Of a stretch of 64,000 bases of DNA, positions 2,710 through 48,162 are shown in pieces. Made by a program: the position numbers and the translations under genes. The notes below the pieces were generated by a model that saw only the letters and a list, made by a program, of their open reading frames with translations, did not search any database and was not told the DNA's origin. The DNA is from Alphaproteobacteria bacterium (lineage in GTDB: Bacteria; Pseudomonadota; Alphaproteobacteria; Rs-D84): NCBI GenBank assembly GCA_017503725.1, contig JAFVSL010000003.1, forward strand, positions 72,272-136,271, read 5' to 3'. The first letter of the stretch is position 1. The number at the start of each line of letters is the position of its first letter.

Positions 2710-2979
2710 TTACATTGCGCACGCGTCGCTAAATTCATATGTGCCAGAAACGCCTGTATAGGACACGCCCGCCGGCGCATACATTATGCAATTTGCTGCG
2801 GGATTTGATGTCAAACACGAATTTGCCGTTCCCGCCGAAACTGTATCCGATGGGCACGTTGTCGCAACAGATATTGCGGGTGCATTGACGGAAATATATC
2901 CCGCCGGACACTCTGTTGATGGCGTGGCGGCACTTGCGACAAATGGAACGCAAATAAATAAGAAACCTATTTTTTTCAT
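2710..2979 (-). CDS. secreted cysteine-rich small protein, family B (paralog of 44446-44715)
   Basis: Signal peptide; conserved TYEF(S/T)D(A/V)C C-terminus shared with the 44446 and 49610 proteins. Confidence 0.65.
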   Translation of the reverse strand: MKKIGFLFICVPFVASAATPSTECPAGYISVNAPAISVATTCPSDTVSAGTANSCLTSNPAANCIMYAPAGVSYTGVSGTYEFSDACAM

Positions 2980-3449
2980 CAGTTTTCCTCTAAGTTATTT
3001 AAAAATTTTAGCACTGTACTGGCATAGCCTTCGCCTTCGTCGCCATATGATACACATCCTTGTGCGCATAAAGCATTTGTAGTGACATCGGTCAATCCAA
3101 GTACGTCGGGACTTAAGTCCAGATACTGATGAGAGGCGGGTCTTATCCATTTGGACAAAACGGGATATATCATTTTGCAATAACAATAAACTCTTTCCGT
3201 AGCGATGCTGCCATCAGAGTCTAAATCATCTGCCACATCGCCAACATCTGATAGAGAAAATGTTGCAATCCCCCGATATTTTACGCCGTTGCATTTTACC
3301 CACCAATTCATACCATCAGGCATCTCCTCGGTTCCTTCATCACAAACCTCCCAATTATCCATTGTTGGTTTGAATACACACTGTTGCACTGCAAATGCTG
3401 GGGCGGTCATCATTGCCCCAACCGCGGTTAAGGTTAAAAGTTTTTTCAT
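2979..3449 (-). CDS. secreted cysteine-rich protein, family A (CYCKM-x-YP-x-SKW motif; paralog of 43995-44432 and 50463-50936)
   Basis: Signal peptide MKKLLTLTA-GA; conserved Cys pattern; same N-terminus as the 43995 protein. Confidence 0.65.
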   Translation of the reverse strand: MKKLLTLTAVGAMMTAPAFAVQQCVFKPTMDNWEVCDEGTEEMPDGMNWWVKCNGVKYRGIATFSLSDVGDVADDLDSDGSIATERVYCYCKMIYPVLSKWIRPASHQYLDLSPDVLGLTDVTTNALCAQGCVSYGDEGEGYASTVLKFLNNLEEN

Positions 3450-3480
3450 CTGTATCGCTCCCTTCTTTGTTTTATTCGCG

Positions 3481-3705
3481 AAAAAACAAAAACCACTGCG
3501 TAAAACGAGTGGTCAGGAGGTTCGAAACAATCCTTAGAATTGTGTGCTTATTCAATATATTCACAACCCTCCTGACGCTAAAACAGTCAGGAGTTTTCTT
3601 TTATGTCCGATATTTTCACCAGACACTAAGGAACGGGTTTCGACACCCCATTACAACCATCGGTTATAACACCTGCATTATAACGTATTGTTTTTGTTTG
3701 TGCAA
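3481..3705 (-). promoter_or_regulatory. conserved promoter + structured 5' leader with terminator (copy 1 of 3)
   Basis: -35 TTGCAC / -10 TATAAT, then ATGGGGTGTCGAAACCC box, hairpins CTCCTGAC/GTCAGGAG and GGTCAGGAGGGTT/AACCTCCTGACC, then terminator ACCACT-loop-AGTGGT + T8. Near-identical to 43716-43966. Confidence 0.6.
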
Positions 3706-3789
3706 TTGCTTAGATAAATAAAAGTTTAGTGGTTATCATTACGCGTTATGTGATATAATTCCCATTGCGGAAAACAAAGGAATGGAAAA

Positions 3790-9630: not shown

Positions 9631-10659
9631 TTATATCTGTTCTACACGTCCCGGTTTCCAGCCTTCGATTTGTCGAATGGCGCCAACTACTTTGTCCAGT
9701 TCCGCATCACTTAAATCCGAAATGCGCCGATTTATAGACAGGCCCGTCAGACGTTCAATACTGCGCTGATATGCGACTGTGTTGTTTTCCGATGGGGGTG
9801 CATATCGACTGACTGCGTTTGCTATTGTCAGGTTGTTGTAAGATCTGCCACGCAACAACTGTTTTACCGCGCGTTGTCCCGTTTGTTCATCTGGGAATAC
9901 GGCGAATCCGCCGGCCTCGCCGATGGCGCCGGCACGACGTGAAAAATCAGACATACGGATGTTGCCCGGGTTGTTATTGCGCCACGCGCGTGTTCCACCA
10001 ACGTGTTTGTATTGGGTATTGTCGGCGGCCACAAATATAACGTCCTTGCCGGATTGTATTGCGCGTACCGGCGTCATATTTTGCGCGGTCGCATTTTGAA
10101 TAGGTGTTGCATAGTGTTCAATATTATCAGGTTTTGTTGTGGGAACGTCAATATCGCCCGGCACGCCCGCCGATGCCAACGGCGCTTCTGAATATGGTGT
10201 TGCCACGATATTTACACCGGAATCATAGATATCTAATTCCTCGTACAGTTGGAATTCATCGTATTTTTTCATTTGTTTCTTGCGCAGGTCCAACAGCGCA
10301 TTTACCGTATCCAACGGTACAGCAATCGTCTTGCACCCCCGGCCAATTAAATCACCACCATATATTGTATTAACAAAAACCGGAATCGCGCATATTGTCC
10401 CCAGTATCAATATTAAATTTTTAACATTGTTTACTATGGACATCGTCTGTGCATTTTTTGATCCGCGTATCATCGCCCACGCCCAGCCCGCCAAAAGTAT
10501 CCCGACAATAAAAATCAGAATTGTCCACGCGTATTCAAAAAAAGTTTGGAAACTGCGAACGACACAGCCAGGATCTTCCATATATATATTGATATCATCC
10601 ACCGCCAGGTTTCGAAAACCCGAATTGTTCAGCAGTCTAAGTATCGTTTCGTTGTCCAT
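9631..10659 (-). CDS. hypothetical membrane protein with conserved C-terminal domain (WRNNNPGNIR motif)
   Basis: Two N-terminal TM helices; C-terminal 150 aa domain of unknown function. Confidence 0.5.
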   Translation of the reverse strand: MDNETILRLLNNSGFRNLAVDDINIYMEDPGCVVRSFQTFFEYAWTILIFIVGILLAGWAWAMIRGSKNAQTMSIVNNVKNLILILGTICAIPVFVNTIYGGDLIGRGCKTIAVPLDTVNALLDLRKKQMKKYDEFQLYEELDIYDSGVNIVATPYSEAPLASAGVPGDIDVPTTKPDNIEHYATPIQNATAQNMTPVRAIQSGKDVIFVAADNTQYKHVGGTRAWRNNNPGNIRMSDFSRRAGAIGEAGGFAVFPDEQTGQRAVKQLLRGRSYNNLTIANAVSRYAPPSENNTVAYQRSIERLTGLSINRRISDLSDAELDKVVGAIRQIEGWKPGRVEQI

Positions 10660-10675
10660 TCACGTGCATGCGTTT

Positions 10676-11638
10676 TTATTTTTGCCCCGCCACACCGGTA
10701 AAGAATCCCGGTATTGAAAAGTCTTCGTCGTTTGCGGCAATTCCGGCCCACCCAAACAGGTCGCCCATCAAACCATTGTCGTCCCGTTTCGCCTTTTTAA
10801 ACGGCAAGATATTTTTTAATTTCCCAATTTTACCATTCCCTGATGGTTTCGGAGATTCCGGAATTTTATCCTGGGTCTGGGCAAATTCATTGGCCAGTTG
10901 CGCCAACGTTGCATCGGTGTCCGCCATATCATCGGTCATAGAAACGGAAAAATCGTCATTGTTTGCATCTGATATCTCTTCTTCGGGGGTGGCGTTTGTG
11001 TCCGGTTCCACATCCGATATAATATCTTCGCCCAATGGCGTCATCGATTCCAGTAATTCTTCCAGTGTCTTTTCGTGCTCTACGACGGGCGCATCGTCTG
11101 TGACAACATCGTCAATTGATACGGTCAATGCGTCAATGCTTTCCGCAACATCTGGTTCAGGTTCGGATATGGGGGCGGTTGCATCCATTGCCGGGGCAAC
11201 CTCTGGTTCATCGACGGATGTGTCGGCTTTGTCATTTGCGGACAATATAGATAATATTGGAATTATTTTGTCGGATTCTGCCTCTGCGGTGATTTCGGGT
11301 GCTTCTTCAACAACTGGTTCAACAACTGTTTCTTCTGGAATAATTTCTGGGATTGATTCTGGCTCTTGTACCGCATCTGTCTCGGGTTCAACGGTGTCAA
11401 TTATTTCTGGGGTGGGTTCTTCGATTGTTTGGGTGATTTGTGTTTCTGTTATTACCTGTGTCGTGTTTGTTGCGACATTTGTCAATGCATCGTCAGCATC
11501 AACCGGAACGCCAAATAACACTGTATCCGCCCCCAGTCCCAACGCACCGCGCACTTCTTCAAAAGCAGCACGAATCTGGGCCATTTCGAACACTTCATTA
11601 CCAGAGATATAGATTATTTTTGTTTTCATCGAATTCAA
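10676..11638 (-). CDS. hypothetical acidic low-complexity protein (E/P/T/D-rich) with structured N- and C-terminal domains
   Basis: Minus ORF has a compact N-terminal domain and an RBS. The opposite-strand 314 aa Ser-rich ORF is judged a shadow. Confidence 0.5.
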   Translation of the reverse strand: MNSMKTKIIYISGNEVFEMAQIRAAFEEVRGALGLGADTVLFGVPVDADDALTNVATNTTQVITETQITQTIEEPTPEIIDTVEPETDAVQEPESIPEIIPEETVVEPVVEEAPEITAEAESDKIIPILSILSANDKADTSVDEPEVAPAMDATAPISEPEPDVAESIDALTVSIDDVVTDDAPVVEHEKTLEELLESMTPLGEDIISDVEPDTNATPEEEISDANNDDFSVSMTDDMADTDATLAQLANEFAQTQDKIPESPKPSGNGKIGKLKNILPFKKAKRDDNGLMGDLFGWAGIAANDEDFSIPGFFTGVAGQK

Positions 11639-20890: not shown

Positions 20891-21172
20891 TTATTCATTG
20901 CTTCGTATTGTCATTGGTTTCAGGGGATTTGCATCCGAATGCCGAAAGATTTCATCACGTGCCATTGTTAACCTTATTTTTGTTTCCTGATATCGGGCCT
21001 CGCGCTCGTACGTGCGTTTCAGGCTATAAAATATTTGTTCCATTTGTGAATATGCCAAAAAAATTTCGCTTAATAAATCAGATTGTTTCGGGCGATACAT
21101 TTCGGCAACCTTGAAATCCGCCTCTAAATCCGCCAGTGTGTCTTCTGTAATATCCATATCGTTTACCCCCAT
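20891..21172 (-). CDS. hypothetical small cytoplasmic protein
   Basis: 93 aa ORF directly downstream of leader copy 3. Confidence 0.45.
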   Translation of the reverse strand: MGVNDMDITEDTLADLEADFKVAEMYRPKQSDLLSEIFLAYSQMEQIFYSLKRTYEREARYQETKIRLTMARDEIFRHSDANPLKPMTIRSNE

Positions 21173-21180
21173 TGTTTATT

Positions 21181-21401
21181 GTTTATAAAAATAAAAAACC
21201 GCATCTGAAAATCAAAAGCGGTTGGAGGTTAAAGACTATTCTAGAAAGATAGTGCTGTTTATTGGATATTCACAGCCCTCCAACCGACGGTTGGAGATTT
21301 TTTACGTCATCACAGACGTTCTAGAAAGGGTCTTTACACCCCATACTGAACAAAAACATTCAGTACCCGTCAATTATACCCCACAAAAAATCATATTGCA
21401 A
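21181..21401 (-). promoter_or_regulatory. conserved promoter + structured 5' leader with terminator (copy 3 of 3)
   Basis: -35 TTGCAA / -10 TATAAT, ATGGGGTGTAAAGACCC box, hairpins CTCCAACC/GGTTGGAG and GGTTGGAGGGCT/AACCTCCAACC (compensatory relative to copies 1 and 2), terminator CCGC-loop-GCGG + T-run. Confidence 0.6.
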
Positions 21402-21417
21402 ATAATTCGATGAATAA

Positions 21418-23472
<2,055 letters not shown>

Positions 23473-31199: not shown

Positions 31200-31397
31200 A
31201 TGAACAAGTTTTACAAGGGCGGATTCCTAAGCGGCTATCGAACATATATTATGTCATCGGTTGGAATCTTGTCGGCGATTGCGGCCTATGCGGTCGGGGA
31301 CAGTGATATTTTCATAACACTGCAAAGTATTTTTACATTGGGTGGAATTTTCTTTTTACGCAAATCGAATGAACCAAAGGATAAATCAAATGGATAA
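31200..31397 (+). CDS. holin-like small membrane protein (2 TM)
   Basis: 65 aa, two hydrophobic helices, charged C-terminus, immediately after the hydrolase. Confidence 0.5.
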   Translation: MNKFYKGGFLSGYRTYIMSSVGILSAIAAYAVGDSDIFITLQSIFTLGGIFFLRKSNEPKDKSNG

Positions 31398-32046
31398 AGT
31401 TCCAGAAAAATTTTTAAACGAAGACGGTACATTAAATGCAGATGCATTGATGAAATCTTATTCAGAACTTGAACGCAAAATCGGAACAATGATAACGGTG
31501 CCGACCGATGGGTGTGATGAAAGTGTTCGTGCGCGCTTTAATCGCGCGATTGGTGTGCCGGAAACATCTGATGAATATCCAACAAATGAAATATTTGATG
31601 ATGAAAATTTGAAAAATAAATTTCACGAAATTGGATTAACATCAACCCAGGTTGAAAAAATTTATGATATTGCAAATGAATTTCTTGCACCTGTGATATC
31701 AGATTTATATAACACGCAAAATGAAAAAGATGCACTTGCAGAATTAAAAAACTTTTTCGGTGGAACGGAAAAAATGAATGATGCATTGCGTGCAATAGAT
31801 GCGTTTGGTAAAAAGTTTTTACCCGCCGATGCATTTGATGAACTGTGCTCCTCGCCCCAGGGAATCCAAGGGATTTATCGTATGATGCAATCAATGGAAC
31901 CAAATGTTGAAACCGAAAAAAATGAAATAAAAAATTTAACGGATTCAGATTTACGACGTATGATGCGTGATCCAAAATATTGGCGTGATGGCGATGCAGA
32001 ATACATACGCAAAATAGAAAATGGTTTTAAAAAATTATATTCATAA
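31393..32046 (+). CDS. putative phage scaffolding protein (T7 gp9 position)
   Basis: Acidic helical 218 aa protein immediately upstream of the capsid module; assignment by position and composition only. Confidence 0.4.
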
Positions 32047-32155
32047 GAAAAAAAATTCACTTTCTTCTTTACTAATTTTTGATATTCATATAAAATACCA
32101 AGTAAGAACAAAACAAATTTGTTCTATCCAAAAAATAGAAGAGAAGGAGAGAAAT

Positions 32156-32635
32156 ATGGTCTTTGGCCTGTTCAAAAAATCTGCAAAGAAAGCAGTTGTA
32201 AAACCAGCCGCAAAACCGGTTGCAAAAAAAGAACCTGCAAAGAAAGCGCCAGCAAAGAAAGTTGCTGCAAAAAAGCCAGCTGCAAAACCAGTTGCAAAGA
32301 AAGCACCTGCGAAAAAAGTAGTTGCAAAACCAGTTGCAAAGAAAGCACCTGCAAAAAAAGTAGTTGCAAAACCAGTTGCGAAAAAAGCACCTGCAAAAAA
32401 AGTAGTTGCAAAACCAGTTGCGAAAAAAGCACCAGCGAAAAAAGTAGCGGTTAAAAAACCAGTTGCGAAAAAAGCACCAGCGAAAAAAGTAGCGGTTAAA
32501 AAACCGGTTGCAAAAAAAGCACCTGCGAAAAAAGTAGTTGCAAAACCAGCAGCGAAAAAAGTTGCAGTTAAAAAAGTTGCTGCAAAACCAGTTGCAAAGA
32601 AAGCGTGTGCAAAAAAATGTGCAAAAAAGAAATAA
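32156..32635 (+). CDS. histone H1-like / AlgP-like lysine-alanine-rich repeat protein
   Basis: About 20 tandem [14 protein letters not shown] repeats encoded by 45 nt DNA repeats; RBS GAGAAGGAGAGAAAT. Confidence 0.65.
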
Positions 32636-32853
32636 TATAATTTCTTAACGCTATTAACCCGAACGATTGTTCGGGTTTTTCTTTTGAAAATTTCAGTCAG
32701 ATGAAATATACAGTCTGACTGAATTTTTTATTGCGGACAAGTCTTGCCACCCCGCATTTATTTTATGTTTACGGCGCATTTATTGCATAACCGTTTCATA
32801 AAATCGTCGCGCAAATTGCGCATTTTTCATTTAACCAAACAAAGGAAATAAAT

Positions 32854-33681
32854 ATGTCCGTTTCAATTGATCAGGTCTTCGTAAAGCAATTCGAGGCCGA
32901 TGTTCATTTGGCCTATCAACAGATGGGCACAAAACTGCGTTCAACCGTTCGCAGCAAATCAGGTGTTGTTGGCGCATCTACCACATTCCAAAAGGTTGGT
33001 CGTGGCACCGCCAGCACAAAATCACGTCACGGTATTGTACCGGTAATGAATTTGAACCACGAACCTGTGGAATGTATGTTAACTGATTACTATGCGGGTG
33101 ATTGGGTTGATGCATTGGATGAATTAAAGGTAAATATTGATGAACGCCGTGTTGTTGCGTCTGCTGGTGCGTATGCCCTGGGGCGCAAGACAGACGAATT
33201 GATTATCGATGCAATGAACACATCAACATTGTCTGTTGGTGATTATACAACCGGCTTGACCAAAGATTTGATTTTATCAGCGGTTGAAATTTTAAACACA
33301 AACGATGTCCCAGATGATGGTCGTCGCTTTGCGGTTATTGGCGTACACCAGTGGAATGAACTGTTGTCGATGGATGAATTTGTATCGGCCGATTATGTTG
33401 GTGATGCAAATCCATTGGTAAATGGTTTTGAGGCAAAAAAATGGTTGGGTATTACATGGGTTCTGCATAACGCATTGCCGGTATCCCAAACGAACCGAGA
33501 TTGCTTTATCTATCACGCGTCCAGCGTTGGGCACGCCTGTGGCCAGGAAGTAAAAACAGACATTTCTTGGCACGGTGAACGTGCGGCGCATTTCATCAGC
33601 AACAGTATGTCCCAGGGTGCCGTTTTAATCGACAATGACGGTATCGTTCGTGTCAAATGTTCTGATGCGCCCGCTGCCTAG
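32854..33681 (+). CDS. phage major capsid protein, T7 gp10-like (short form)
   Basis: TKLRSTVRSKSGVVGASTTFQKVGRGTA parallels T7 gp10 TSRHMVRSISSGKSAQFPVLGRTQAAY; 275 aa. Confidence 0.7.
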   Translation: MSVSIDQVFVKQFEADVHLAYQQMGTKLRSTVRSKSGVVGASTTFQKVGRGTASTKSRHGIVPVMNLNHEPVECMLTDYYAGDWVDALDELKVNIDERRVVASAGAYALGRKTDELIIDAMNTSTLSVGDYTTGLTKDLILSAVEILNTNDVPDDGRRFAVIGVHQWNELLSMDEFVSADYVGDANPLVNGFEAKKWLGITWVLHNALPVSQTNRDCFIYHASSVGHACGQEVKTDISWHGERAAHFISNSMSQGAVLIDNDGIVRVKCSDAPAA

Positions 33682-33719
33682 GTGTAAAAAACAACCACTT
33701 TAACCAAAGGATAAATCTT

Positions 33720-33953
33720 ATGGCATTTCAAAATAAAAATCTGTCGGTGATTGCGTATGCAAATGGCTTTACATTGTGGCATTATGCATCTGCAACAGAA
33801 ACTATTGCGACGATTTCTGCGACCGGCTTTTTCAATGATGTTAAAACATTGATGAATATTGGTGATGTTGTAATTATCAACGCGTCTGATAACACCGCAA
33901 TCAAGAAAATAAACATCACGGCCAGCAACGTCACAACCGGTGCATTGGCATAA
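33720..33953 (+). CDS. hypothetical small protein in capsid-tail module
   Basis: 77 aa ORF with RBS AAGGATAAAT; function unknown. Confidence 0.4.
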   Translation: MAFQNKNLSVIAYANGFTLWHYASATETIATISATGFFNDVKTLMNIGDVVIINASDNTAIKKINITASNVTTGALA

Positions 33954-34026
33954 TAATTTATTATCGTCAAATGGTGGTGCAATTTTGCACCACCAATATT
34001 TTTTATTAACAACAGTGGGGGCAATT

Positions 34027-34545
34027 ATGCTTACAAAAATAGATTTATGTTCAATGGCGCTATTAAAACTGGGGGAACAACCAATTCAGTCTTTCAGTGA
34101 CGATACCGCCACCGCACAGTTGGCACGAACCTTATTTGATCCCATAACAGATGCATTGATTGCGTCGCATCCGTGGCGTTTTGCAACCCGTCAATTAACA
34201 TTGACCAAAAATTCAGATGGTGATTTCCTGATTCCATCAGATGTTTTACGGGTACTGAAATCGGGCGGTGATATTGTTGGTAACAAGATTGTTGCACCAA
34301 CAGATAACCTGACAATAACGGCCTGTACGCGTGTTGGGGTTGATATGTTTCCGGGCTATTTTGTGTCATTGGTGGCGACAAAATTGGCGATGGAATTTTG
34401 TATCCCGCTTTCTGGTGACCAGACCGTGTTCAGAATGCTGGCGGCGCTTTATGAATCAGAATTACAGTCTGCAAAATTCATCGACAGCACAACCGCACCC
34501 GGTGCAAAAATAGACAATTTTTCGTTAATAAATGCACGGTTTTAA
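34027..34545 (+). CDS. tail tubular protein A, T7 gp11-like
   Basis: LLKLGEQPIQSFSDDTATAQLARTLFD...SHPWRF parallels T7 gp11 ILASIGEPPVSTLEGDA...RGWTF. Confidence 0.65.
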   Translation: MLTKIDLCSMALLKLGEQPIQSFSDDTATAQLARTLFDPITDALIASHPWRFATRQLTLTKNSDGDFLIPSDVLRVLKSGGDIVGNKIVAPTDNLTITACTRVGVDMFPGYFVSLVATKLAMEFCIPLSGDQTVFRMLAALYESELQSAKFIDSTTAPGAKIDNFSLINARF

Positions 34546-36272
34546 TGGGGGGCAAAATGGCAAATTTTATTAAAACACAGAATTCTTTTGCCCACGGTGT
34601 GGTGTCATCTGAGTTTTTTACGCGTGATGATATTAACGGATTGTCGTGCCTTGAAAATATGGATGTTTTGCCGGGGGGCGGTCTGACGCGTCGTCGCGGA
34701 TTAGCACATATTGCGAATTTACCGGGTGTTGCACGCCTGGTGCCATTTTCTGTATCGGAAACAGAAAACTATGTCTTGGCAATAACATCGGTGCATATAA
34801 TTATTTATTCTGGTACGCAGATGATGGGCGACTTGTTTGCGCCCTGGGGGGCGGACGATTTGTCGCGCCTGCAATACGCCCAGCGTTTTGACACAATGAT
34901 ATTTGTGCACCCAGATTATCGTCCGCAAATTTTGAAAAAAACCGAAACAGGCTTTGAATTGGGTGACTTTATATTTGCGCGCAATGATGCCGATATGTCG
35001 ATGAATATTCCGTTTATGCGGTTCGAGGATACGTCTGATATAAAAATTTCAGTCAGCACCAGTGACCGAGGCAACAACTATGCTAAATTCACGACCAGTT
35101 CAGATTTCTGGACCCCTGAATATGTGCGAACACGCTTTATGCTGTTGGACCGTCAGTGGATAATTGATGAATACATCAGTCCGACCGAGGTTATCGCATA
35201 TGTCAACGGTACATACACCGCGCCCGGCGCGCCGGTAACCGATTGGTTTGAATCCGCGTTCAGCACCCCGCGTGGCTGGCCGTGCAGTATAACATTTCAC
35301 CAAGATCGATTGGTTTTTGGTGGTTCGCGTTCCTATCCGGCGGGCGTATGGATGTCCCGTGTTGGTCAACATAAAAACTTTAACGTTGGCACCGGTCTGG
35401 ATGACGAAGCAATTTTTATAACCCTGCTGTCCCAGCAGCGACAACAAATTTGTACCGTGGTCAGTGGCGATAATCTTCAAATTCTGACCACTGATGGCGA
35501 ATGGGCGATTTCCAGCAAACCATTAACCCCATCGGTCGTTGATATAAAACAGCACACGTCCGTTGGATCTTGTGCATCAAGATATTTACCACCCCAGAAG
35601 ATAGAAGACGCCACCATATTCGTGTCCAAGACAATGCGTGATATTCGCGAATTGTCTTTGGATGATTTGGGTGAAAATTATAACGCAACTGATTTATGCG
35701 CATTTGCCAAGCATTTGATGACATCGCCGGTGGATATGGCGTACAACGATGCAACCCGGCAATTATTCGTGGTCCAATCAGACGGTAATATGGCTGTCTT
35801 GAACCAGAATGGGGCATTGGGGATATCGGCGTGGGCCGAATACAAAACATATGGCAAATTTATATCTGTAACGGTTGTAGACGGGAAAACATATGTCGTA
35901 TCGCTGCGTGATGATGCGTATAACATTGAATGTTTTTCAGATTCTGTGATGCGGGATGCAGATAAATATGATTTTGCATACCAGGCGGCGTCTTTGCCAT
36001 TTCGTGTGTCTCATCATAATGTGTCGCGTTTGCGCATTCGCCGGGTGTCACTGCGCCTGCTGAATACTAAATCAGTATTTATAAATGGCGCGCGTGCCAC
36101 ATTGCCAAATGAAATTTATTCAGAAAATCATCCGGGTTATTCGGGTGACGTGTCTGTAAATTTGCTGGGTGGATGCCTATCGTGTTTGTCGCCATATTGG
36201 ACCATACACGGAAACGAGCCCCAGCCAATAACGGTTTTATCTGTTTGTGTGTCCGGCGGATACAGTGTTTAA
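34545..36272 (+). CDS. tail tubular protein B, T7 gp12-like (shortened)
   Basis: N-terminus FIKTQNSFAHGVVSSEFFTRDDINGLSCLENMDVLPGGGLTRRRG parallels T7 gp12 IKNLKGGISQQPDILRYPDQ...ETEGLQKRP. Confidence 0.65.
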   Translation: MGGKMANFIKTQNSFAHGVVSSEFFTRDDINGLSCLENMDVLPGGGLTRRRGLAHIANLPGVARLVPFSVSETENYVLAITSVHIIIYSGTQMMGDLFAPWGADDLSRLQYAQRFDTMIFVHPDYRPQILKKTETGFELGDFIFARNDADMSMNIPFMRFEDTSDIKISVSTSDRGNNYAKFTTSSDFWTPEYVRTRFMLLDRQWIIDEYISPTEVIAYVNGTYTAPGAPVTDWFESAFSTPRGWPCSITFHQDRLVFGGSRSYPAGVWMSRVGQHKNFNVGTGLDDEAIFITLLSQQRQQICTVVSGDNLQILTTDGEWAISSKPLTPSVVDIKQHTSVGSCASRYLPPQKIEDATIFVSKTMRDIRELSLDDLGENYNATDLCAFAKHLMTSPVDMAYNDATRQLFVVQSDGNMAVLNQNGALGISAWAEYKTYGKFISVTVVDGKTYVVSLRDDAYNIECFSDSVMRDADKYDFAYQAASLPFRVSHHNVSRLRIRRVSLRLLNTKSVFINGARATLPNEIYSENHPGYSGDVSVNLLGGCLSCLSPYWTIHGNEPQPITVLSVCVSGGYSV

Positions 36273-36297
36273 TCAATACAACAAAAAGGAATTTATT

Positions 36298-36645
36298 ATG
36301 GGACAACTTGTATCAGATGTTAGTGAAATCTTGGATTACAAAGATGAAAAGAAACAGGCAAAATCTGCCCGTCAGGAAATCTTGAAACAGATGGCCGCAG
36401 ACGATGCCGAAAAAACAAACCTGGTCAAAAAGGTGTTGGCGACCCAGCGTGCAAAATATGGCGCATCGGGCGTGTCGTCGCGCGGACTCAGCCAGGGGGC
36501 GGTCCTTGCGCGGTTGAAATCAGAAACCGAACAACCATACACTGAAAAACGCAACGCGAATTTGAAAAAATTAAAATCAACACGTGCCAAGAAACCTAAT
36601 TTATTAAAAACAATATTGTCGCGCTTTGATGACTTAGTCGGCTAG
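36298..36645 (+). CDS. hypothetical basic virion/packaging-associated protein
   Basis: 116 aa K/R-rich ORF between tail tube B and fiber genes. Confidence 0.4.
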   Translation: MGQLVSDVSEILDYKDEKKQAKSARQEILKQMAADDAEKTNLVKKVLATQRAKYGASGVSSRGLSQGAVLARLKSETEQPYTEKRNANLKKLKSTRAKKPNLLKTILSRFDDLVG

Positions 36646-36661
36646 GAATAGGGGGATAATT

Positions 36662-37210
36662 ATGCATAAAATCTCTTACATAGCAGATGGTGTCACGACT
36701 GAATTTGAATTTGCATTTCCATTTTTTCAGGCGGCAGATATCCGCGTCGCCAAGAACGAGGTCATTTTAACCACTGATGAATATTCAGTTGTTGAAAATG
36801 TATCTTTTGATGGTGGACGTGTTGTGTTTAATGTTGCGCCCACCGCGGACACACGTATTGATATCTATCGCGTTGTCGCATTGTCGCGCGTCATAGATTA
36901 TCAGCCAACCGCAAAAATAGACCCAGAACATCTAAATTCGGACTTTAATTTTTTAATCGAGGCCCTAAAAGACCTTCACGCACCCGATGTTGATATCGAG
37001 GCCTGGCGTAACACGCACACAAACGTGGTGAATTTCTTGGAATATACGAACAGTCTAATCCAAGATAAATTAACCGGTGGCGGTGTGCTGGGGATTTATC
37101 GCAATTTAATAGCGGTGCTGGATAACGCATTACCAAATCTGATTAACGACTATGGATACATTACGGATTCGGCCGACGACGCCACGTGCGACGATTACGG
37201 ATTATTGTAA
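36662..37210 (+). CDS. tail fiber N-terminal (tail-attachment) domain only, T7 gp17-like
   Basis: YIADGVTTEFEFAFPFFQAADIRV parallels T7 gp17 YQLDGSNRDFNIPFEYLARKFVVV; only 182 aa, no distal receptor-binding domain. Confidence 0.55.
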   Translation: MHKISYIADGVTTEFEFAFPFFQAADIRVAKNEVILTTDEYSVVENVSFDGGRVVFNVAPTADTRIDIYRVVALSRVIDYQPTAKIDPEHLNSDFNFLIEALKDLHAPDVDIEAWRNTHTNVVNFLEYTNSLIQDKLTGGGVLGIYRNLIAVLDNALPNLINDYGYITDSADDATCDDYGLL

Positions 37211-37214
37211 TTTT

Positions 37215-37793
37215 ATGGATACGTGGAACCATACCCTGGGGCAGACAACACCCACACACCACCGTAAAATAATGGAATTTCTGGTGGATGTTCTGGGGGA
37301 CGATATGCACCGGGGACTGCTGATGGCGTTTCGACATTCGGGCAAATCGACCGTTGTCGGGATTTTTGCAGCGTGCACATTGTACCTGTTCCCGTGTACG
37401 CGCATACTGATTTTGTCGGCGCACACGACATTGGCATCGCGAATGGTCGGGCATATCAGACATATCTTGGAAAATCATCCCTGGTGTGCGGATTTATTGC
37501 CCACATCGCGTCGTGATTGGTCGTCGGGACACATTACTATCAACCGACCAATAGGCATACGCGAACCATCTGTAATATGCCAGGGCATCCACGGCAACAT
37601 CACCGGAATGCGCGCAGATTTAATAATCTGCGATGACGTAGAGGTGCCAAACACATCAAACACCCCGCAAAAGCGTGAAAATCTGCGTGAAAGATTACGT
37701 GAACTGGATTTTATCTTGTCGCCCACGGGCACGATGATTTACATCGGTACACCACACACAATGGATACGATTTATCGTACCAGCGATGACTAG
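37215..37793 (+). CDS. terminase large subunit, N-terminal ATPase part (split gene)
   Basis: Walker A FRHSGKST, Walker B LIICDDVE, coupling motif IYIGTPH; ends at a stop without a nuclease domain. Confidence 0.65.
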   Translation: MDTWNHTLGQTTPTHHRKIMEFLVDVLGDDMHRGLLMAFRHSGKSTVVGIFAACTLYLFPCTRILILSAHTTLASRMVGHIRHILENHPWCADLLPTSRRDWSSGHITINRPIGIREPSVICQGIHGNITGMRADLIICDDVEVPNTSNTPQKRENLRERLRELDFILSPTGTMIYIGTPHTMDTIYRTSDD

Positions 37794-38446
37794 GCGTTAT
37801 CTTCGGCTTTTACCGAACTGATAAACGTGCGCAACCGCCCCAACAGTTCGTTTCCTGCATCCCCAAACATCGGCAGGTATGTTTCATATTCTGGCATATC
37901 GGCCTGGATTTCTGCGCGTGCACGTTCATCCAGTGGTGCGTTAATAATTTGATTCGCCGTATCCCACAATTGATACGCGCGATATGTTTTTGTAACGACC
38001 GCCCATTGATTTTGCATATCCGGATGCTTGTCCAGTGCATCGTGAATTGCGTTTGCCCATTCTTCGCCAAATCTGCGTACCACATTAAGGCCACGTATAC
38101 GATTCAGGCCGTCTGGATCGGGGGTAAAAGAATTTAACACAGATTGTAATTCAGAAATATCTTTCTGGGACAAAATGGTGTCGGTCACACTGGATTGTGT
38201 CATCAATCCACCATATGGAATCAATTCTGGTTCAATGGAATCCATTGGTGTTTTGCCACTGCGCAGATTTTCAATATGCCGGATAAGCATTTTACCGGTT
38301 GGCATTTCGCGCAACTCTTTGATTACGTCATCGGTGGCCTCGTCTATAAAGACTGGGTTAATCGCAGACCATCCGCCAACGATAACGTGTTCCTGGCGAT
38401 AAAGGTTTAACAATCTTTGTGCCGTGGCGGCGATACGTGCTTTCAT
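37790..38446 (-). CDS. hypothetical protein
   Basis: 218 aa ORF in the block interrupting the terminase. Confidence 0.45.
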   Translation of the reverse strand: MKARIAATAQRLLNLYRQEHVIVGGWSAINPVFIDEATDDVIKELREMPTGKMLIRHIENLRSGKTPMDSIEPELIPYGGLMTQSSVTDTILSQKDISELQSVLNSFTPDPDGLNRIRGLNVVRRFGEEWANAIHDALDKHPDMQNQWAVVTKTYRAYQLWDTANQIINAPLDERARAEIQADMPEYETYLPMFGDAGNELLGRLRTFISSVKAEDNA

Positions 38447-38480
38447 AATGTGCCTCTCTCTCCGGTATTATGTTGATGAA

Positions 38481-39488
38481 TTATTCCATCACAATCATAA
38501 CAACTTTGTGCATTGTTTGCGCGTTAATTTTTTCTTCTGGGCTGGATATTTGACCGTATATTTTCCCTTTGGAATCTTGACGTACACTAACAATTTGCGC
38601 GTTGACGGTTGTTTCTGAATCCAATGCATCAAAGTCCGTATCAATGCATACCGCCAAATCGCCCGCCACAATTGGTGCATCTACATCGGCAAATACGTAT
38701 GATTTTTCAGGGATAAATCCGCCCAAGCGCTTTGAATTTGGCATAACCGCGTAAATACCACTGCGGCCCTCTAATGACATTGGGGCAACAATCATCGTTT
38801 TGTCAGATTTTTTAAACGCAATTGATTTACCAGACGGCATACCGAACACCGGGACCAGTTTTTTGCGTGCACTGTCATACAATTTTGCGCCATACAAGCC
38901 GCCACTCATATCAATGCCAGATAATGGGTTGCCCGGTTCCAGTACGGATTTAACGCGTTCCTTGACCTTGTTAATCTGTTTGTTTAATTCGCCGCTTTTA
39001 TACAGGGTTGCGATTTTATCAAACATACTTTCGACCGTCATCGCGAACGATTGTGCCAATGGTTCAATTTCATTTTCATAGATTTCGCGTTGTCCAACCT
39101 CGATTTTATGATACACAGACAATGTCATACCGGCATCTTTGGCGGCACGTGCGATAGTTTTTCCAGATTGCTGGCGAATTTTGCGCAGACCACTGCCGAA
39201 AATTTTCAGGCCACCATCTTCGTTATCATTCAGACGGCGTTTGATTTCGGTTTGCCATTGTTCTGCAACCTCGTCAGATTCTTTGATGAAAATGTCGGAC
39301 AGTTTGCACCCCAAGATATTACAGATATTCAGCAACTGTTTCTGGTTCAAGCGGCGTACACCCTTTTCAATTTTTGAAACCGCGGACAGGGACAAACCCG
39401 CGCGTCGCGCCAGTTCCGTCATCTTCATCCCATTTTTCAGGCGGATGTTTCTGATATTATTTGGAAAAATAATTTCTTCTTGGGCCAT
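38481..39488 (-). CDS. XRE-family transcriptional regulator with two HTH domains and CI/LexA-like C-terminal domain
   Basis: Two Cro/C1-type HTH segments (MTELARRAGLSLSAVSKIEKG; IARAAKDAGMTLSVYHKIEVG) plus C-terminal beta-rich domain. Confidence 0.6.
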   Translation of the reverse strand: MAQEEIIFPNNIRNIRLKNGMKMTELARRAGLSLSAVSKIEKGVRRLNQKQLLNICNILGCKLSDIFIKESDEVAEQWQTEIKRRLNDNEDGGLKIFGSGLRKIRQQSGKTIARAAKDAGMTLSVYHKIEVGQREIYENEIEPLAQSFAMTVESMFDKIATLYKSGELNKQINKVKERVKSVLEPGNPLSGIDMSGGLYGAKLYDSARKKLVPVFGMPSGKSIAFKKSDKTMIVAPMSLEGRSGIYAVMPNSKRLGGFIPEKSYVFADVDAPIVAGDLAVCIDTDFDALDSETTVNAQIVSVRQDSKGKIYGQISSPEEKINAQTMHKVVMIVME

Positions 39489-39563
39489 TGTGCAACTCCT
39501 TAAAAACTATAATCTTGACAAAATAATAGTCAATTTTTAAGGCTTGCGCAAGTAAATAATCAC

Positions 39564-41120
39564 TTACAGTGGCATATCATCCGGGATTGCATCGATATCA
39601 ATTGGCGTTGGTGAAAATTCAGATCCATCCAATGGTATGCTGGCGGTTGGTTGTGATGTGACGTTTTCACCACGTGTGTCAAATTCATCCGGCAGATTGT
39701 CGAACAAACTGTAATCGCCAAAGAATGCGGTGCGTACGGTTTCCGGACGTCCGTGACGGTTTTTTCCGATGATAATATCGGCCTTGCCACGGGATTGTTC
39801 GTAACGTTTTTGCCACGATTCCACCATTGCGGAATTTGTTGTGTTTGAAATTCTTTCTGATGGATTACGGTTCGCCAGATAGTATTCTTCGCGGTACGTA
39901 AACATAACAATGTCGGCGTCTTGTTCAATAGATCCAGATTCACGCAAGTCCGCCAATTGTGGACGTTTGTCATCGCGCTGTTCAACGCTACGTGACAACT
40001 GTGACAGGGCAATTACCGGCACATCCAATTCCTTGGCCAGCATTTTTAGCCCTCGTGTAATTTCGGAAATTTCTTGGACACGGTTGTCGCTGCGCTTGCC
40101 ACCGGGGGACGTCATCAATTGCAGATAGTCCACCACAATCAACGCAATTCCACCATATTTCCGTGCCAGGCGTCTTGCACGTGTGCGCATCATCGGTACC
40201 GACATACCCGGCGTATCATCAATGCACAGTGGAATCTTGCTGATTGCGTCGGCGTATTGTGTCATTTTAAGCATATCTTCATCCGTCAGGTTTCCTTCAC
40301 GCATTGCGGATGCGGGCACCTTGGACTGGGATGATAAAACACGTGCCGCTAATTGGGAATGCGACATTTCAAGACTGAAAAATACGACGGCGCCCTTGTA
40401 ATTTTTATTGGCCGTGCCATAGTGTATTGCATTTGCCGCATTAAACGCGATATTCATCGCCAACGTGGTTTTACCCATCGCCGGACGACCCGCTACGATA
40501 ATTAAATCCGAATGGTGCAGACCACTGATTGATTTATCCAGCGCCGTCAGTCCCGTTGTCAGACCCGATAATTGCCCGTCGGCCTTGTACGCGGTTTCGG
40601 CTTCCCTTAATGCGGCCTGTAATGCGGTTGCGATTGAAACAACGTCACGTTCGGACGAACCCGTGGTTGCCATATCGAATAATTTCTGTTCGGCAACCTC
40701 TATTTGTCGATTAACTGGATTGTCCAGGTCTTCGACAAATGCGCCATCCATAATATCCTGGGCCAGGTTGATTAACTGTCGTCTTTGTGCATGTTCGTAT
40801 ACGATGCGACCATATTGTTCAACGTTAACAACGGTTGCCCCCGCACCCGATAATTGGGTCAGGTAATCCACACCACCCACCGATTCCAAGACCCCCTGTT
40901 GGTCCAGATAGTTTTTAGCGGTAATAATATCGAACGGGATACCGGCGGCAAATTGACGTTCCGCCAGTTTATAAATTTCCTGGTGTGCGGGATGCGAAAA
41001 GTGTTCCGCATTCAAGAATTCTGACACACGTTCCAACGCGCGATTATTCATCAACACCGCGGCCAGTACGGCCTGTTCTGCTTCCAGATTGGTTGGCAAA
41101 GTCTTAGGGGTAAAATCCAT
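39564..41120 (-). CDS. dnaB: replicative DNA helicase DnaB
   Basis: DnaB N-domain NLEAEQAVLAAVLMN, Walker A AGRPAMGKTT, RecA-like core; start set at MDFTPKTL; acidic C-terminal tail of about 60 aa. Confidence 0.8.
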   Translation of the reverse strand: MDFTPKTLPTNLEAEQAVLAAVLMNNRALERVSEFLNAEHFSHPAHQEIYKLAERQFAAGIPFDIITAKNYLDQQGVLESVGGVDYLTQLSGAGATVVNVEQYGRIVYEHAQRRQLINLAQDIMDGAFVEDLDNPVNRQIEVAEQKLFDMATTGSSERDVVSIATALQAALREAETAYKADGQLSGLTTGLTALDKSISGLHHSDLIIVAGRPAMGKTTLAMNIAFNAANAIHYGTANKNYKGAVVFFSLEMSHSQLAARVLSSQSKVPASAMREGNLTDEDMLKMTQYADAISKIPLCIDDTPGMSVPMMRTRARRLARKYGGIALIVVDYLQLMTSPGGKRSDNRVQEISEITRGLKMLAKELDVPVIALSQLSRSVEQRDDKRPQLADLRESGSIEQDADIVMFTYREEYYLANRNPSERISNTTNSAMVESWQKRYEQSRGKADIIIGKNRHGRPETVRTAFFGDYSLFDNLPDEFDTRGENVTSQPTASIPLDGSEFSPTPIDIDAIPDDMPL

Positions 41121-41145
41121 GTCAAAATCCTTTTCCTTAACGCCA

Positions 41146-41985
41146 ATGGTATATGAAAAAAATGCTTTTTCAATGCCTTTTTTATCGGGATATAAAATAT
41201 TGAAAATTCCGATAGTTGACGCCAATGGTACGCCCGCGTGGCCGGAACTTTTCCCGATTGAAAAGGTTGCCCAGATGCGGCAAATCGTCGGCCCCCGGCA
41301 TTTTTCAGCACAAATGATGCTGGAATTTGTGCCACCTGAACGTATTCGTCTGGACCCGGGGCAAATACATTTCTATGAATATATGCTGGATATTCATTCG
41401 GCACGTCTGGGGCCGCATTTGATAACGGGTGCGTCTGTGTATTGGGATCCGTCCACCGGCCGCCATAAATCAGACCACAGTGTTTGTGTTCTGATATATC
41501 GTGATGATAAAAATCATAATGTTTTTATACACGATGTTATGTATATGACGGTTTCTGATACCGAAACCCACCCCTTGAATGCCCAGTGTGAACGGGTGAT
41601 TGATTTTATGCACCGATACGGTATGCGCCGAATAACAATCGAGACAAATGGACTGGGCAATGCATTGCCGGAAATAATGCGCGATGTGGCGGTGCGTCGG
41701 GGTCAAAACATATACGTAAATAAAATCACTAATAACCGGAACAAGTCCGACAGAATCTTGGATGCGATTGAACCCCTGCTGACCTCGGGGCACCTGTATG
41801 CCAATATGCGTGTGCAACATACGCCACTTTTGTCGGAAATGTTGGGTTGGTCACCCGTTGGCGGGGTGGGGCACGATGACGGCTTGGACGCGATTGCGGG
41901 TGCGATTGCGCAAACGCCGATTGTCCTGCGTCCGTCCGGGGGGATGTCCCGTCCAGTTTATGCAAATACAAATTTCACAATATAA
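41146..41985 (+). CDS. terminase large subunit, C-terminal nuclease part (split gene)
   Basis: RNaseH-like nuclease motifs VYWDPSTGRHKSDHSVCVLI and GHDDGLDAIAGAI; start uncertain (41119-41173). Confidence 0.65.
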   Translation: MVYEKNAFSMPFLSGYKILKIPIVDANGTPAWPELFPIEKVAQMRQIVGPRHFSAQMMLEFVPPERIRLDPGQIHFYEYMLDIHSARLGPHLITGASVYWDPSTGRHKSDHSVCVLIYRDDKNHNVFIHDVMYMTVSDTETHPLNAQCERVIDFMHRYGMRRITIETNGLGNALPEIMRDVAVRRGQNIYVNKITNNRNKSDRILDAIEPLLTSGHLYANMRVQHTPLLSEMLGWSPVGGVGHDDGLDAIAGAIAQTPIVLRPSGGMSRPVYANTNFTI

Positions 41986-42011
41986 AACAACACAAACAAA
42001 AAGGATAAAAT

Positions 42012-43241
42012 ATGCAATCTAATTTATTGCAAATGTACAAACGTGCGCTGGATATGCGCGATCCGTGGTTGCGTCGTTGGGCGGATGCACGCCGGTATAC
42101 AATGCCGGAAACCGATGACGACACGGCAACGCTGTTTGATGCAACCGCAATGGATGCGGTTGATAATCTGGCGGCATCACTTTATACATTATTGACCCCA
42201 CCGGAATCATTGTGGCTGAACCTGGTCCCGGAAAGTGATTTGTCACCCGATGCAGGCACCGCGACGGATGTGTTGCGTGCAAACTTAAATGATTCTAATT
42301 TTTATACGACCGTGCACCAATGTTATTTGGATTTGGTCACGTTGGGAACAGCGTGTTTGTTTATGGCGGAAAATCCGATTGGTGCGTCATCTGCATTTTC
42401 GTTCACCGCGATTCCAATGTCAGATATTGCAATTTTACCAAACGCGGTATTTCACACCACATCAATGTCCGCGCGTGATGCGATGGAAAAATATCCGACA
42501 TGGACGGTGCCGGCAAACCTGCGTGATACAATAAAACAAGACCCCGACACCCCAATTAAACTGGTACAGAGTTTGGTTGGAACTGAATTTACAGCGTGGT
42601 TGGATGCCGGTGGCGACATTGAAAACAACATTGTTGCAACGGGAACATTTGAAACAAATCCGTATTTGATTTTCCGTTGGTCGGTGACGTCCGGCGAAAT
42701 TTATGGGCGTGGCCCGGTCTTGCGTGCGTTGCCAGATATTAAAACCGCGAACAAGGTTGTGGAATTAGTCTTGAAAAACGCGACAATATCCGTATCTGGT
42801 ATCTGGATGGCGGACGATGACGGCGTGATAAATTTGAATAACATCAGCCTGACGCCGGGTGCGATTATACCAAAGGCGGTTGGTTCGTCGGGCCTGACAC
42901 CATTGACCAGTGGTGCAAACTTTGATGTGTCCCAGATTATTTTAAAAGATCTGCGGGAACGCATCCGTCACGCATTGTTGGCGGACCGGTTGGGCCTGTT
43001 AAGCGAAAAAGAAATGACCGCAACCGAGATTATGGCCCGTAATTCCGATATGATGCGAATCTTGGGTGCGACCTATGGTCGATTACTGCACGAATTTATA
43101 AGGCCATTGTGCGAACGCGGTTTGCAGATTTTATCACGCCGTGGTGTGATTGAACCAATAACCCTGCACGGGGATGCAGAATTAAAATACATTGCACCAA
43201 TTGCACAAATGGTTGCGCTGGAATCAATTGCGGGGGTGTAA
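42012..43241 (+). CDS. phage portal (head-to-tail connector) protein, T7 gp8-like (shortened)
   Basis: MYKRALDMRDPWLRRWADARRYTMPE...AVDNLAASLYTLLTPPESLWLNL parallels T7 gp8 YERLKNDRAPYETRAQNCAQYTIP...GLNNLASKLMLALFPMQTWMRL. Confidence 0.65.
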   Translation: MQSNLLQMYKRALDMRDPWLRRWADARRYTMPETDDDTATLFDATAMDAVDNLAASLYTLLTPPESLWLNLVPESDLSPDAGTATDVLRANLNDSNFYTTVHQCYLDLVTLGTACLFMAENPIGASSAFSFTAIPMSDIAILPNAVFHTTSMSARDAMEKYPTWTVPANLRDTIKQDPDTPIKLVQSLVGTEFTAWLDAGGDIENNIVATGTFETNPYLIFRWSVTSGEIYGRGPVLRALPDIKTANKVVELVLKNATISVSGIWMADDDGVINLNNISLTPGAIIPKAVGSSGLTPLTSGANFDVSQIILKDLRERIRHALLADRLGLLSEKEMTATEIMARNSDMMRILGATYGRLLHEFIRPLCERGLQILSRRGVIEPITLHGDAELKYIAPIAQMVALESIAGV

Positions 43242-43244
43242 TAA

Positions 43245-43439
43245 ATGTCGGAAAATATCGCACAAGATTTTGCGCGCACATTTTGCACCCCATCGGGTGC
43301 GCGTGTGATTGAGCATTTACGCAAAATAACTATTGAACGGGTACTGGGGGCGAACGCGACGGACGCAGAATTGCGCGGGGTTGAGGCCCAACGTGCCCTT
43401 GTTCACCAAATTGAAAATATGATAGAACGGGGGAAATAA
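43245..43439 (+). CDS. hypothetical small protein
   Basis: 64 aa ORF tightly packed after portal gene. Confidence 0.4.
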   Translation: MSENIAQDFARTFCTPSGARVIEHLRKITIERVLGANATDAELRGVEAQRALVHQIENMIERGK

Positions 43440-43441
43440 AA

Positions 43442-43699
43442 ATGACGACGCAACCCAGTGCCATTGGCATCCTAGATTTTTTACGCGACAGTTGGTTTTT
43501 AATCGCCTTTATTGCGGGGTGTGTCTACTGGGTTGCGCGCCAGGATTCGTCCGTTGCGGAACTGGAACGTGTTGATGCCCGTATAACATCGCTTGAAAAT
43601 CGCACAACGGTCTTGGAAACGGGTATCGGCCAAATTCAAATAAAAATAGACGATATCAAAGAAGACCTGAACCTGATAAAAGGCGCAGTTATTAAATAA
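43442..43699 (+). CDS. hypothetical TM + coiled-coil protein (holin/spanin-like)
   Basis: One TM helix followed by heptad coiled coil; 85 aa. Confidence 0.4.
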   Translation: MTTQPSAIGILDFLRDSWFLIAFIAGCVYWVARQDSSVAELERVDARITSLENRTTVLETGIGQIQIKIDDIKEDLNLIKGAVIK

Positions 43700-43715
43700 A
43701 AGTTTATCTAAGCGA

Positions 43716-43966
43716 TTGCGTAAGTGGAAACATTTGGTTATAATGTGATTGTTATGGTGACTTTGCCATAATGGGGTGTAGAAACCCGACTTACGCGTCG
43801 AAACATAAATAAGCGGAAATATGCCGGACGGTTGTGTTTTGATGAAATAAAACTCCTGAACTTTATTGGTCAGGAGGGTTGCGAATATATTGAATAAGCA
43901 CACAATTCGTAAGATTGTTTCTAACCTCCTGACCACTTGAATTTATTCAGTGGTTTTTGTTTTTTC
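43716..43966 (+). promoter_or_regulatory. conserved promoter + structured 5' leader with terminator (copy 2 of 3)
   Basis: -35 TTGCGT (43716-21), 17 nt spacer, -10 TATAAT (43739-44); ATGGGGTGTAGAAACCC box; hairpins CTCCTGA/GTCAGGAG and GGTCAGGAGGGTT/AACCTCCTGACC; terminator ACCACT-loop-AGTGGT + T-run. Confidence 0.6.
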
Positions 43967-43994
43967 GCGAAAAACAATGAAAGGAGTTGAACAA

Positions 43995-44715: not shown

Positions 44716-44758
44716 AAAATCCCGCCATCGGCGGGATTTTTTTCTTTTCCTTTCTCTA

Positions 44759-48086: not shown

Positions 48087-48162
48087 TCGGGGTGACAGGA
48101 TTCGAACCTGCGACCCCTTGCACCCCATGCAAGTACTCTACCAGGCTGAGCTACACCCCGAC
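48084..48162 (-). tRNA. tRNA-Pro (anticodon GGG)
   Basis: Minus-strand GTCGGGGTGTAGCTCAGCCTGGTAGAGTACTTGCATGGGGTGCAAGGGGTCGCAGGTTCGAATCCTGTCACCCCGACCA. Confidence 0.85.

Follow-up and report, generated by a model that had tools for sequence, protein, structure and literature searches.

The 64,000-nucleotide (nt) stretch of DNA analysed here, referred to throughout as the window, covers positions 72,272 to 136,271 (forward strand) of contig JAFVSL010000003.1 in assembly GCA_017503725.1, and encodes at three loci two families of small cysteine-rich proteins with predicted signal peptides, which we call A and B. The window derives from Candidatus Enterousia (order Rs-D84), a group of gut Alphaproteobacteria with genomes below 1 Mb. 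At locus 1, on the reverse strand, A1 (2979-3449; 156 amino acids (aa), with seven cysteines in the mature protein) is followed by B1 (2710-2979; 89 aa, five cysteines), the start codon of which overlaps the A1 stop codon (TGATG). Locus 2, on the forward strand, comprises A2 (43995-44432; 145 aa counted from MKKLL, again with seven cysteines in the mature protein) and B2 (44446-44715; 89 aa, five cysteines). Locus 3, on the reverse strand, carries A3 (50463-50936; 157 aa, nine cysteines), a divergent A copy without a canonical leader, and, separated from it by 25 nt, a gene encoding a fused A+B protein (49610-50437; 275 aa, 12 cysteines in the mature protein). Terminator hairpins follow B1 (2687-2701) and B2 (44714-44742, forward strand), and a terminator-like hairpin follows the fused gene (49569-49608, reverse strand).

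All six open reading frames (ORFs) lie where a preliminary description of this DNA had placed them, and family profiles, each drawn from over 100 homologues, resolve them into two A-B pairs and an A3/fused(A+B) operon. The A profile recovers A1 (2e-34), A2 (5e-32), A3 (6e-14) and the fused protein (7e-14), and the B profile recovers B1 (1e-43), B2 (6e-40) and the fused protein (1.8e-5), so that the relatedness of these proteins, earlier proposed to form a paralogous family, is far above chance. Pairwise BLASTP links A1 with the fused protein (5e-6) and B2 with its C-terminus (2e-5), and detects no similarity between A2 and A3. Within the fused protein the A-domain match spans residues 99-167 (49937-50143) and the B-domain match residues 228-271 (49625-49756); as an identical 275-aa protein is called on nine contigs from separate assemblies, the reported fusion is genuine and not an assembly error. 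A profile search found no further A or B copies in the window. The sequence motif said to be invariant in family A is present in all four A units, although not as strictly written, as the fused copy has T at the position specified as K or Q; as found, it reads C[YW]C[KT][MR][IT]xPxxS[KQT][WF]. B1 and B2 both finish in GTYEF[ST]D[AV]C, in keeping with the C-terminal signature described for family B.

Signal peptides had been attributed to every member. Those predicted for A1, A2, B1, B2 and the fused protein look canonical, with a K/R-rich start, a hydrophobic core and an AxA-type site; that of A3 is weaker, owing to a Glu within its hydrophobic core. The predicted A signal peptides end in PAxA, followed across the site by VQ(Q/K)C, and those of B end in A followed by (A/T)PSTSC. 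A lipobox (L-[ASTVI]-[GAS]-C) is absent from the signal-peptide ends of both A and B, in which a cysteine lies four to six residues past the AxA-type site, and a lipoprotein reading was rejected on these grounds.

Beyond the window, an exhaustive profile search places 886 representative clusters in family A at E≤1e-3 (350 of them at E≤1e-10), and profile search places at least 342 clusters in family B, nearly all of 90-92 aa. These relatives are all labelled 'hypothetical protein', and originate from Alphaproteobacteria or Enterousia metagenome-assembled genomes (MAGs). The family was also suspected to lack named homologues, and none was found in Pfam, NCBIfam, PHROGs, PDB sequence profiles or Foldseek: the six window proteins have no match at curated thresholds in the first three databases; no Pfam family is matched by more than three of 144 A-family members; PDB sequence-profile searches returned nothing for A or B; and Foldseek returned no match at E<0.3 for the A model against PDB and BFVD, or for the B model against PDB. 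No relatives of A or B occur among IMG/VR viral contigs, and a literature search on motif and lineage found no description of these proteins. Families A and B are lineage-restricted, and new at the level of both sequence and fold. With hundreds of clusters each, they could be deposited as new Pfam entries, and the leader RNA described below as a new Rfam entry. B is under-annotated in some MAGs, as public gene calls at locus 1 (window 2710-3082, and likewise in L001 and L036) omit B1 and report instead an opposite-strand ORF of 98 to 119 aa.

The AlphaFold2 (AF2) model of A comprises four strands and two C-terminal helices, with a predicted local distance difference test (pLDDT) score of 68.6 and a predicted template-modelling (pTM) score of 0.67. 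The model of B, from 113 sequences, is mostly coil with short strands (pLDDT 63.8, pTM 0.32). Against Pfam, family B yields sub-threshold matches only, to cEGF in 44 of 113 sequences (best E 9e-4), CC in 32 and Furin-like_2 in 17. B does share with EGF-like, furin-like and CC repeats (PF12662, PF15913, PF04942) a pair of 'C-P-x-G-Y' hairpin-type units, although its matches to all of these remain below curated thresholds (best E 3e-4 to 2e-2). An EGF-like domain has six cysteines, however, whereas B has five, and the C-terminal YTDxxGTYEFTDxC part of B is without counterpart.

The pairing of A with B is highly regular among relatives. At every fetched locus with sufficient room an A gene precedes a B gene, and the two are directly adjacent in 14 of 15 distinct cassettes, where most overlap by 1 nt or are separated by 10-14 nt, and none by more than ~50 nt; the adjacency first noticed in the window is that of a fixed operon. 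One relative (L020) is arranged A-A-B, as is locus 3 of the window, where the second A is fused to B. Fusions occur in both orders: A precedes B in the window, and in P0125 a weakly scoring B-like domain stands right before an A core. In L009 and its relatives, B reaches 159 aa through an additional N-terminal cysteine-rich part (with a weak Colipase hit). A cores also form arrays of two to seven within proteins of 327 to 6218 aa, including P0027 (4750 aa), which combines A cores with Listeria-Bacteroides (Flg_new) repeats and an Endonuclease I domain. A giant Flg_new-repeat protein (>3374 aa) is likewise encoded immediately upstream of the A-B cassette in L009 (1-5433). According to a restrictive pattern scan, a single MAG (SIG48) has at least seven cassette loci.

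The cysteines of the two families suggest how their products might associate. Past the signal peptide, the cysteine count is odd in 128 of 137 stand-alone A proteins, mostly seven or nine; B has exactly five in 109 of 112, and the fused protein has seven plus five, making 12. Within the A alignment, C36 and C53 are lost together (26 sequences), as are C64' and C124' (11) and C91 and C132 (3), which suggests three bonded pairs; C24, C89 and C128 are never lost. As the A cores of multi-domain proteins begin past the C24 arm, and contain six or eight cysteines in 21 of 26 cases, C89 and C128 are likely to be paired, and the unpaired cysteine of stand-alone A is most likely C24, residue 4 of the mature protein. 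In the AF2 model, C89 and C91 lie on a strand (86-95), and C128 and C132 on a helix (121-138). Together, this model and the co-lost cysteines suggest an A core built from a small beta-sheet, a strand of which is bonded to a C-terminal helix by disulfides between the CxC and CxxxC motifs; from the co-lost cysteines and the six-cysteine tandem cores we infer that these are C89-C128 and C91-C132. Given an odd number of cysteines in A, five in B, twelve in the fusion, and fusions in both orders, we favour an A-B heterodimer joined by one intermolecular disulfide.

The two partners appear to evolve very differently. Over 11 cassettes (55 pairs), median protein identity is 37% for mature A and 69% for mature B, and median nucleotide identity is 76% for the leader and 83% for the A signal-peptide region; the median ratio of non-synonymous to synonymous substitution rates (dN/dS) is 0.62 for A and 0.19 for B. 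At locus 1, comparison of the window with strain L001 shows 97-100% identity in the flanks, leader, signal peptide and B, against 32-70% in mature A. A third A1 allele exists exclusively on contigs shorter than 1 kb, consistent with assemblies breaking on strain variation. With three loci within 64 kb, and with conserved ends around a variable centre, the cassettes show the pattern of a variable surface-protein multigene family. A diversity-generating retroelement was considered and rejected, as the window contains no template repeat, and divergence extends across the whole of mature A. Strain L001 encodes, ~4 kb from its A1-type cassette (10120-10740), a 206-aa protein with an Mtd_N domain (the N-terminus of the phage major tropism determinant); neither a reverse transcriptase nor a template repeat was seen with it, in an analysis that included no dedicated reverse-transcriptase search.

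A conserved leader had been reported before two of the pairs, and this is confirmed for cassettes 1 and 2; the element is, further, a structured RNA that includes a terminator, and is present a third time in the window, upstream of an unrelated gene. Leader copy 1 (3452-3722, reverse strand; nhmmer E=4e-74, with covariation and a single-sequence fold z=-4.2) is served by a sigma-70-type promoter (3677-3705, reverse strand; TTGCAC-17-TATAAT), and its predicted parts are a P1 hairpin (3650-3670), a long-range helix (3637-3649 with 3512-3528), a hairpin (3569-3593) and an intrinsic-terminator-like hairpin with a U-run (3481-3514, reverse strand), ~30 nt before the A1 start codon. Copy 2 (43703-43993, forward strand) has a corresponding promoter (43716-43744, forward strand; TTGCGT-17-TATAAT) and internal terminator (43931-43965). 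Aligned with 12 homologous cassettes, the two copies give a set of 14 sequences which share the promoter TTGCnn-17-TATAAT, a leader of ~230-270 nt, and the invariant elements GTTATAAT and TTG. RNAalifold proposes 51 pairs for this alignment, and compensatory changes occur at 15. A curated six-helix structure (5' hairpin, long-range helix and its inner extension, two internal hairpins, and the terminator hairpin) is 96.2% paired over the 14 sequences, compared with 39-54% in slid controls, and shows compensatory changes in 24 of 44 pairs, compared with 8.6 +/- 1.9 in shuffles; in the terminator helix (helix 6), seven of ten pairs show them. The terminator hairpin and U-run end ~30-40 nt before the start codon in all copies.

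Judged by this covariation, the leader is a cis-regulatory structured RNA, with a predicted terminator and a predicted alternative pairing. The latter involves three mutually complementary segments, CUCCUGAC, GUCAGGAGG and CCUCCUGAC, the second and third of which could form an alternative 9-bp pairing that is kept in 100% of cells, with three compensatory pairs. The segments covary in the divergent third copy as CUCCAACC / GGUUGGAGG / CCUCCAACC, and again in L022, as read by eye, as UCCAAACCC / GGGGUUGGA / UCCAACCCC. Because the long-range helix and the base of the terminator both include part of the third segment, a switch between termination and read-through is plausible. Most cassette copies lie behind such a leader. 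In such a scheme, transcription of canonical cassettes would proceed from the sigma-70 promoter through the structured leader, which closes with the intrinsic terminator; and since the three segments permit alternative pairings, the leader probably gates expression by termination or read-through, in response to a ligand or factor.

Regulatory leaders of this general kind are familiar from the riboswitches and attenuators that control surface or secreted proteins, cyclic di-GMP riboswitches among them. The element described here resembles them in its long conserved 5' leader, its covarying helices, its mutually exclusive pairings and its terminator just before the start codon, but differs in having no Rfam match, and in that one copy also precedes a small ORF of cytoplasmic type. 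None of 4227 Rfam families matches the leader at gathering score or at E≤10, or any part of the window at E≤0.5. Two metagenome pattern scans for the leader returned, respectively, nothing and seven chance matches without a leader. This unclassified structured RNA could represent a new riboswitch class tied to surface-protein expression.

The third, divergent copy (21166-21418, reverse strand; nhmmer E=7e-11; covariance model 93 bits, E=2e-19) retains a promoter (21373-21401) and a terminator (21187-21222), both on the reverse strand, and is followed by a 93-aa ORF (20891-21172, reverse strand) that is predicted to be helical and has no signal peptide or Pfam match. An equivalent layout, with a leader before a 79-aa ORF, occurs in L022 (1-389), with only marginal resemblance between the two ORFs (E=0.034). 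As the leader precedes a small ORF both here (20891-21418) and in L022, the RNA appears to control more than the A-B cassettes. We speculate that the small protein encoded behind its own leader copy could be a factor that binds the RNA. Upstream of A3, by comparison, stand two copies of GCCGAATCCAA(A/G) (50966-50977 and 51051-51062, reverse strand), 85 nt apart; a conserved pair of copies also precedes the A3-like genes of other MAGs (L020-L022), and the motif may constitute a candidate protein-binding site that replaces the RNA leader in cassettes of this type.

Taken together, these observations lead us to a reading to which we would give an even chance: that A and B form an exported, disulfide-linked heterodimer in which A offers a variable face and B is conserved, mostly encoded behind a leader RNA that probably gates its expression, and that this complex makes contact with partner or host cells. 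The signal peptides and conserved cysteine patterns suggest that both proteins would be exported by Sec and folded by disulfides. A would then present a fast-evolving exposed face and B would serve as a conserved adaptor, in a complex located outside the cell or on its surface, where it might contact partner or host cells, or evade whatever attacks such a surface. The occurrence of A cores in tandem within giant Flg_new-repeat proteins points to an extracellular or surface placement, and together with the variability of A it favours an exposed location. The preliminary description had offered effectors, adhesins or toxins as possible roles. The tandem A domains in Flg_new giants, and the hypervariability of A, lean toward an adhesin or recognition role, and the lack of a catalytic signature in A, together with at least seven cassettes in a genome below 1 Mb, leans away from a toxin. 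A role in contact with other cells or with a host is probable.

The biology of the lineage is congenial to such a role. The host association proposed from the sequence is supported by the assignment to Enterousia and to animal guts: a near-identical contig occurs in an ENA metagenome assembly, and the nearest genome records are animal-gut MAGs labelled Candidatus Enterousia sp. and 'Alphaproteobacteria bacterium'. Enterousia (order Rs-D84) have genomes of 0.75-1.0 Mb and lack respiration, a tricarboxylic acid cycle and standard transporters, from which an obligate symbiotic or parasitic lifestyle, dependent on a partner, has been inferred; the order Rs-D84 as a whole, Candidatus Enterousia included, is widespread in animal guts, and neither the source of their metabolites nor their attachment partners are known (PMC12306168). 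A contact role for A-B would fit a bacterium that obtains metabolites from others, and a cassette present at least seven times in so small a genome is among the foremost candidates for the source of the molecules involved in cell contact.

Several points nevertheless weigh against this reading, and account for our reserve. The A3/fused operon has no leader RNA. Only locus 1 shows strain-level hypervariability of A; the A2 alleles of locus 2 share 95% identity, and the variable patch there is at the C-terminus of B2. The two closest pairs of A alleles have dN/dS values of 1.6 and 1.9, but with ~19 substitutions behind it this excess over 1 falls short of significance. In P0125 the B-like domain scores 12 bits, and the AF2 models are mediocre for A and poor for B. 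The odd cysteine counts might instead reflect homodimers (A-A and B-B), a free thiol or a metal ligand. Most pertinently for location, a Sec signal is the one targeting feature found, with no lipobox, anchor or route across the outer membrane; by itself, such a signal takes a protein of a diderm bacterium no further than the periplasm.

This last consideration makes a periplasmic location a serious alternative, albeit one that we judge unlikely. Under it, A and B would remain within the cell, to inhibit or confer immunity to incoming enzymes (lysozyme or contact-dependent effectors, for example), or in the handling of thiols or metals through their CxC and CxxxC motifs. The absence of a lipobox or a recognisable outer-membrane export signal would be explained, as would the motifs themselves and the odd number of cysteines, and gut bacteria are known to carry periplasmic immunity genes that are multi-copy and evolve fast. 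However, Pfam and NCBIfam searches link neither protein to Ivy, MliC or PliC-type families, or to any other family of inhibitors or immunity proteins; cysteines that are lost together indicate structural disulfides and not redox-active pairs; and the A cores of giant Flg_new-repeat proteins suggest an extracellular setting. Further, B is conserved while A varies, and specific inhibitor pairs usually co-vary.

The heterodimer reading can also be extended, tentatively and with no great likelihood in our estimation, to a recognition system that is both shuffled by recombination and gated by RNA. The A head would bind cell or host surfaces and B would dock it; the conserved leader and B genes would act as homology arms, by which strains swap A heads; and a new class of riboswitch, or the leader-borne and leader-bound protein of 79-93 aa, would switch all copies together. 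If true, this would add a new protein fold family, a new class of regulatory RNA and a new attachment mechanism, in a gut alphaproteobacterium that is obligately dependent on its partners.

Related to this is strict antigenic variation, in which A segments recombine between leader/signal-peptide and B arms, possibly by inversion of oppositely oriented copies. Families of variable surface proteins are well known from host-associated bacteria with reduced genomes, such as Msp2/P44 in Anaplasma and Vsp/Vlp/Vsa in Mycoplasma, and as a type of system A-B resembles them by analogy: many cassettes occur in a very small genome, with a hypervariable centre, conserved ends, and a conserved 5' region and signal peptide. 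Consistent with recombination, mature A at locus 1 is hypervariable between arms that are nearly identical in two strains; the leader and signal peptide are more conserved than mature A at the nucleotide level; synonymous divergence of A and B is discordant within the same cassette pairs; cassettes 1 and 2 form inverted repeats 40 kb apart; and the short contigs of the alternative A1 allele point to assembly breaks. Unlike those families, on the other hand, A-B shows no sequence or fold relationship to them, consists of two subunits, and lacks a lipoprotein signal or beta-barrel. Each copy is complete, with a promoter and an RNA leader to itself, and no silent or partial cassettes, and no recombinase or invertase beside the cassettes, were found. 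With no mosaic donor for the divergent A1 allele, and locus 2 stable between strains, antigenic variation in the strict sense appears distinctly unlikely.

It is very unlikely that A is a large defensin-like peptide with B as its helper, secreted as an antimicrobial or competition factor. The idea draws on the predicted secretion and variability of the proteins, and on the CS-alpha-beta motif of defensins and scorpion toxins, in which a helical CxxxC is tied to a CxC strand by two parallel disulfides. The putative helix-strand staple of A (C128-C89, C132-C91) is of this form, but in A the strand motif precedes the helix motif, in reversal of the usual order, and the domain of ~100 aa has a four-stranded sheet, extra disulfides and no profile match. 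Mature A is ~125-135 aa, compared with 30-50 aa for defensin-type peptides; no transporter, processing or immunity genes adjoin the cassettes; and a single chance-level hit is the only match to a Pfam defensin.

Least credible is a secreted AB-type toxin with A as active and B as small receptor-binding subunit, for which one might cite the A-then-B order of overlapping or close genes as in ctxAB and stxAB (AB5), the signal peptides on both, the ~70-aa mature B, and weak, non-significant matches of B to the Stx1e B subunit (in the signal-peptide region only) and to STb. Against it stand an A for which Pfam, NCBIfam, PDB-sequence and fold searches give no catalytic family (including ADP-ribosyltransferase, N-glycosidase and subtilase domains), that varies beside a conserved B in a manner unsuited to a conserved enzymatic subunit, and that recurs as a repeat module of giant surface-type proteins; a B that is not confidently modelled (short strands only, with no supported OB-fold and no PDB match); and the multi-copy cassette, with at least seven in one MAG.

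Of the remaining features of the window, the most extensive is a T7-like, prophage-like cluster (31342-43699) of permuted gene order, which ends 4 nt before leader 2. It encodes, in order, a scaffold protein, a Lys/Ala-rich HC2-like repeat protein, capsid, tail tube A/B and a tail-fibre N-domain, then a helix-turn-helix protein, DnaB, a partial terminase (C-terminal nuclease domain only), portal, Bbp19 and an XhlA-like protein. One pair had been said to abut a phage-like cluster, and pair 2 indeed follows directly after the T7-like portal, Bbp19 and XhlA-like genes. In strain L002, similar LplA and T7-scaffold genes adjoin the A1-B1/L33/tRNA-Leu locus instead. A phage origin of A and B was rejected, given the lack of relatives in IMG/VR contigs and the non-phage contexts of other cassettes; an inversion between cassettes 1 and 2, as an explanation of the phage position, was rejected because the leader-side neighbours are unchanged in the strains compared. 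Tandem repeats occur within the HC2-like protein of the phage cluster (32021-32635), as units of 12-15 nt (32186-32659), and within a 709-aa ORF without a Pfam match (54597-56726), as five units of 96 nt (55980-56555). Finally, two 45-nt direct repeats (47831-47875 and 48042-48086) are 91% identical, lie 211 nt apart and each contain a hairpin; the second repeat ends at a tRNA-Pro gene (48084-48160, reverse strand).

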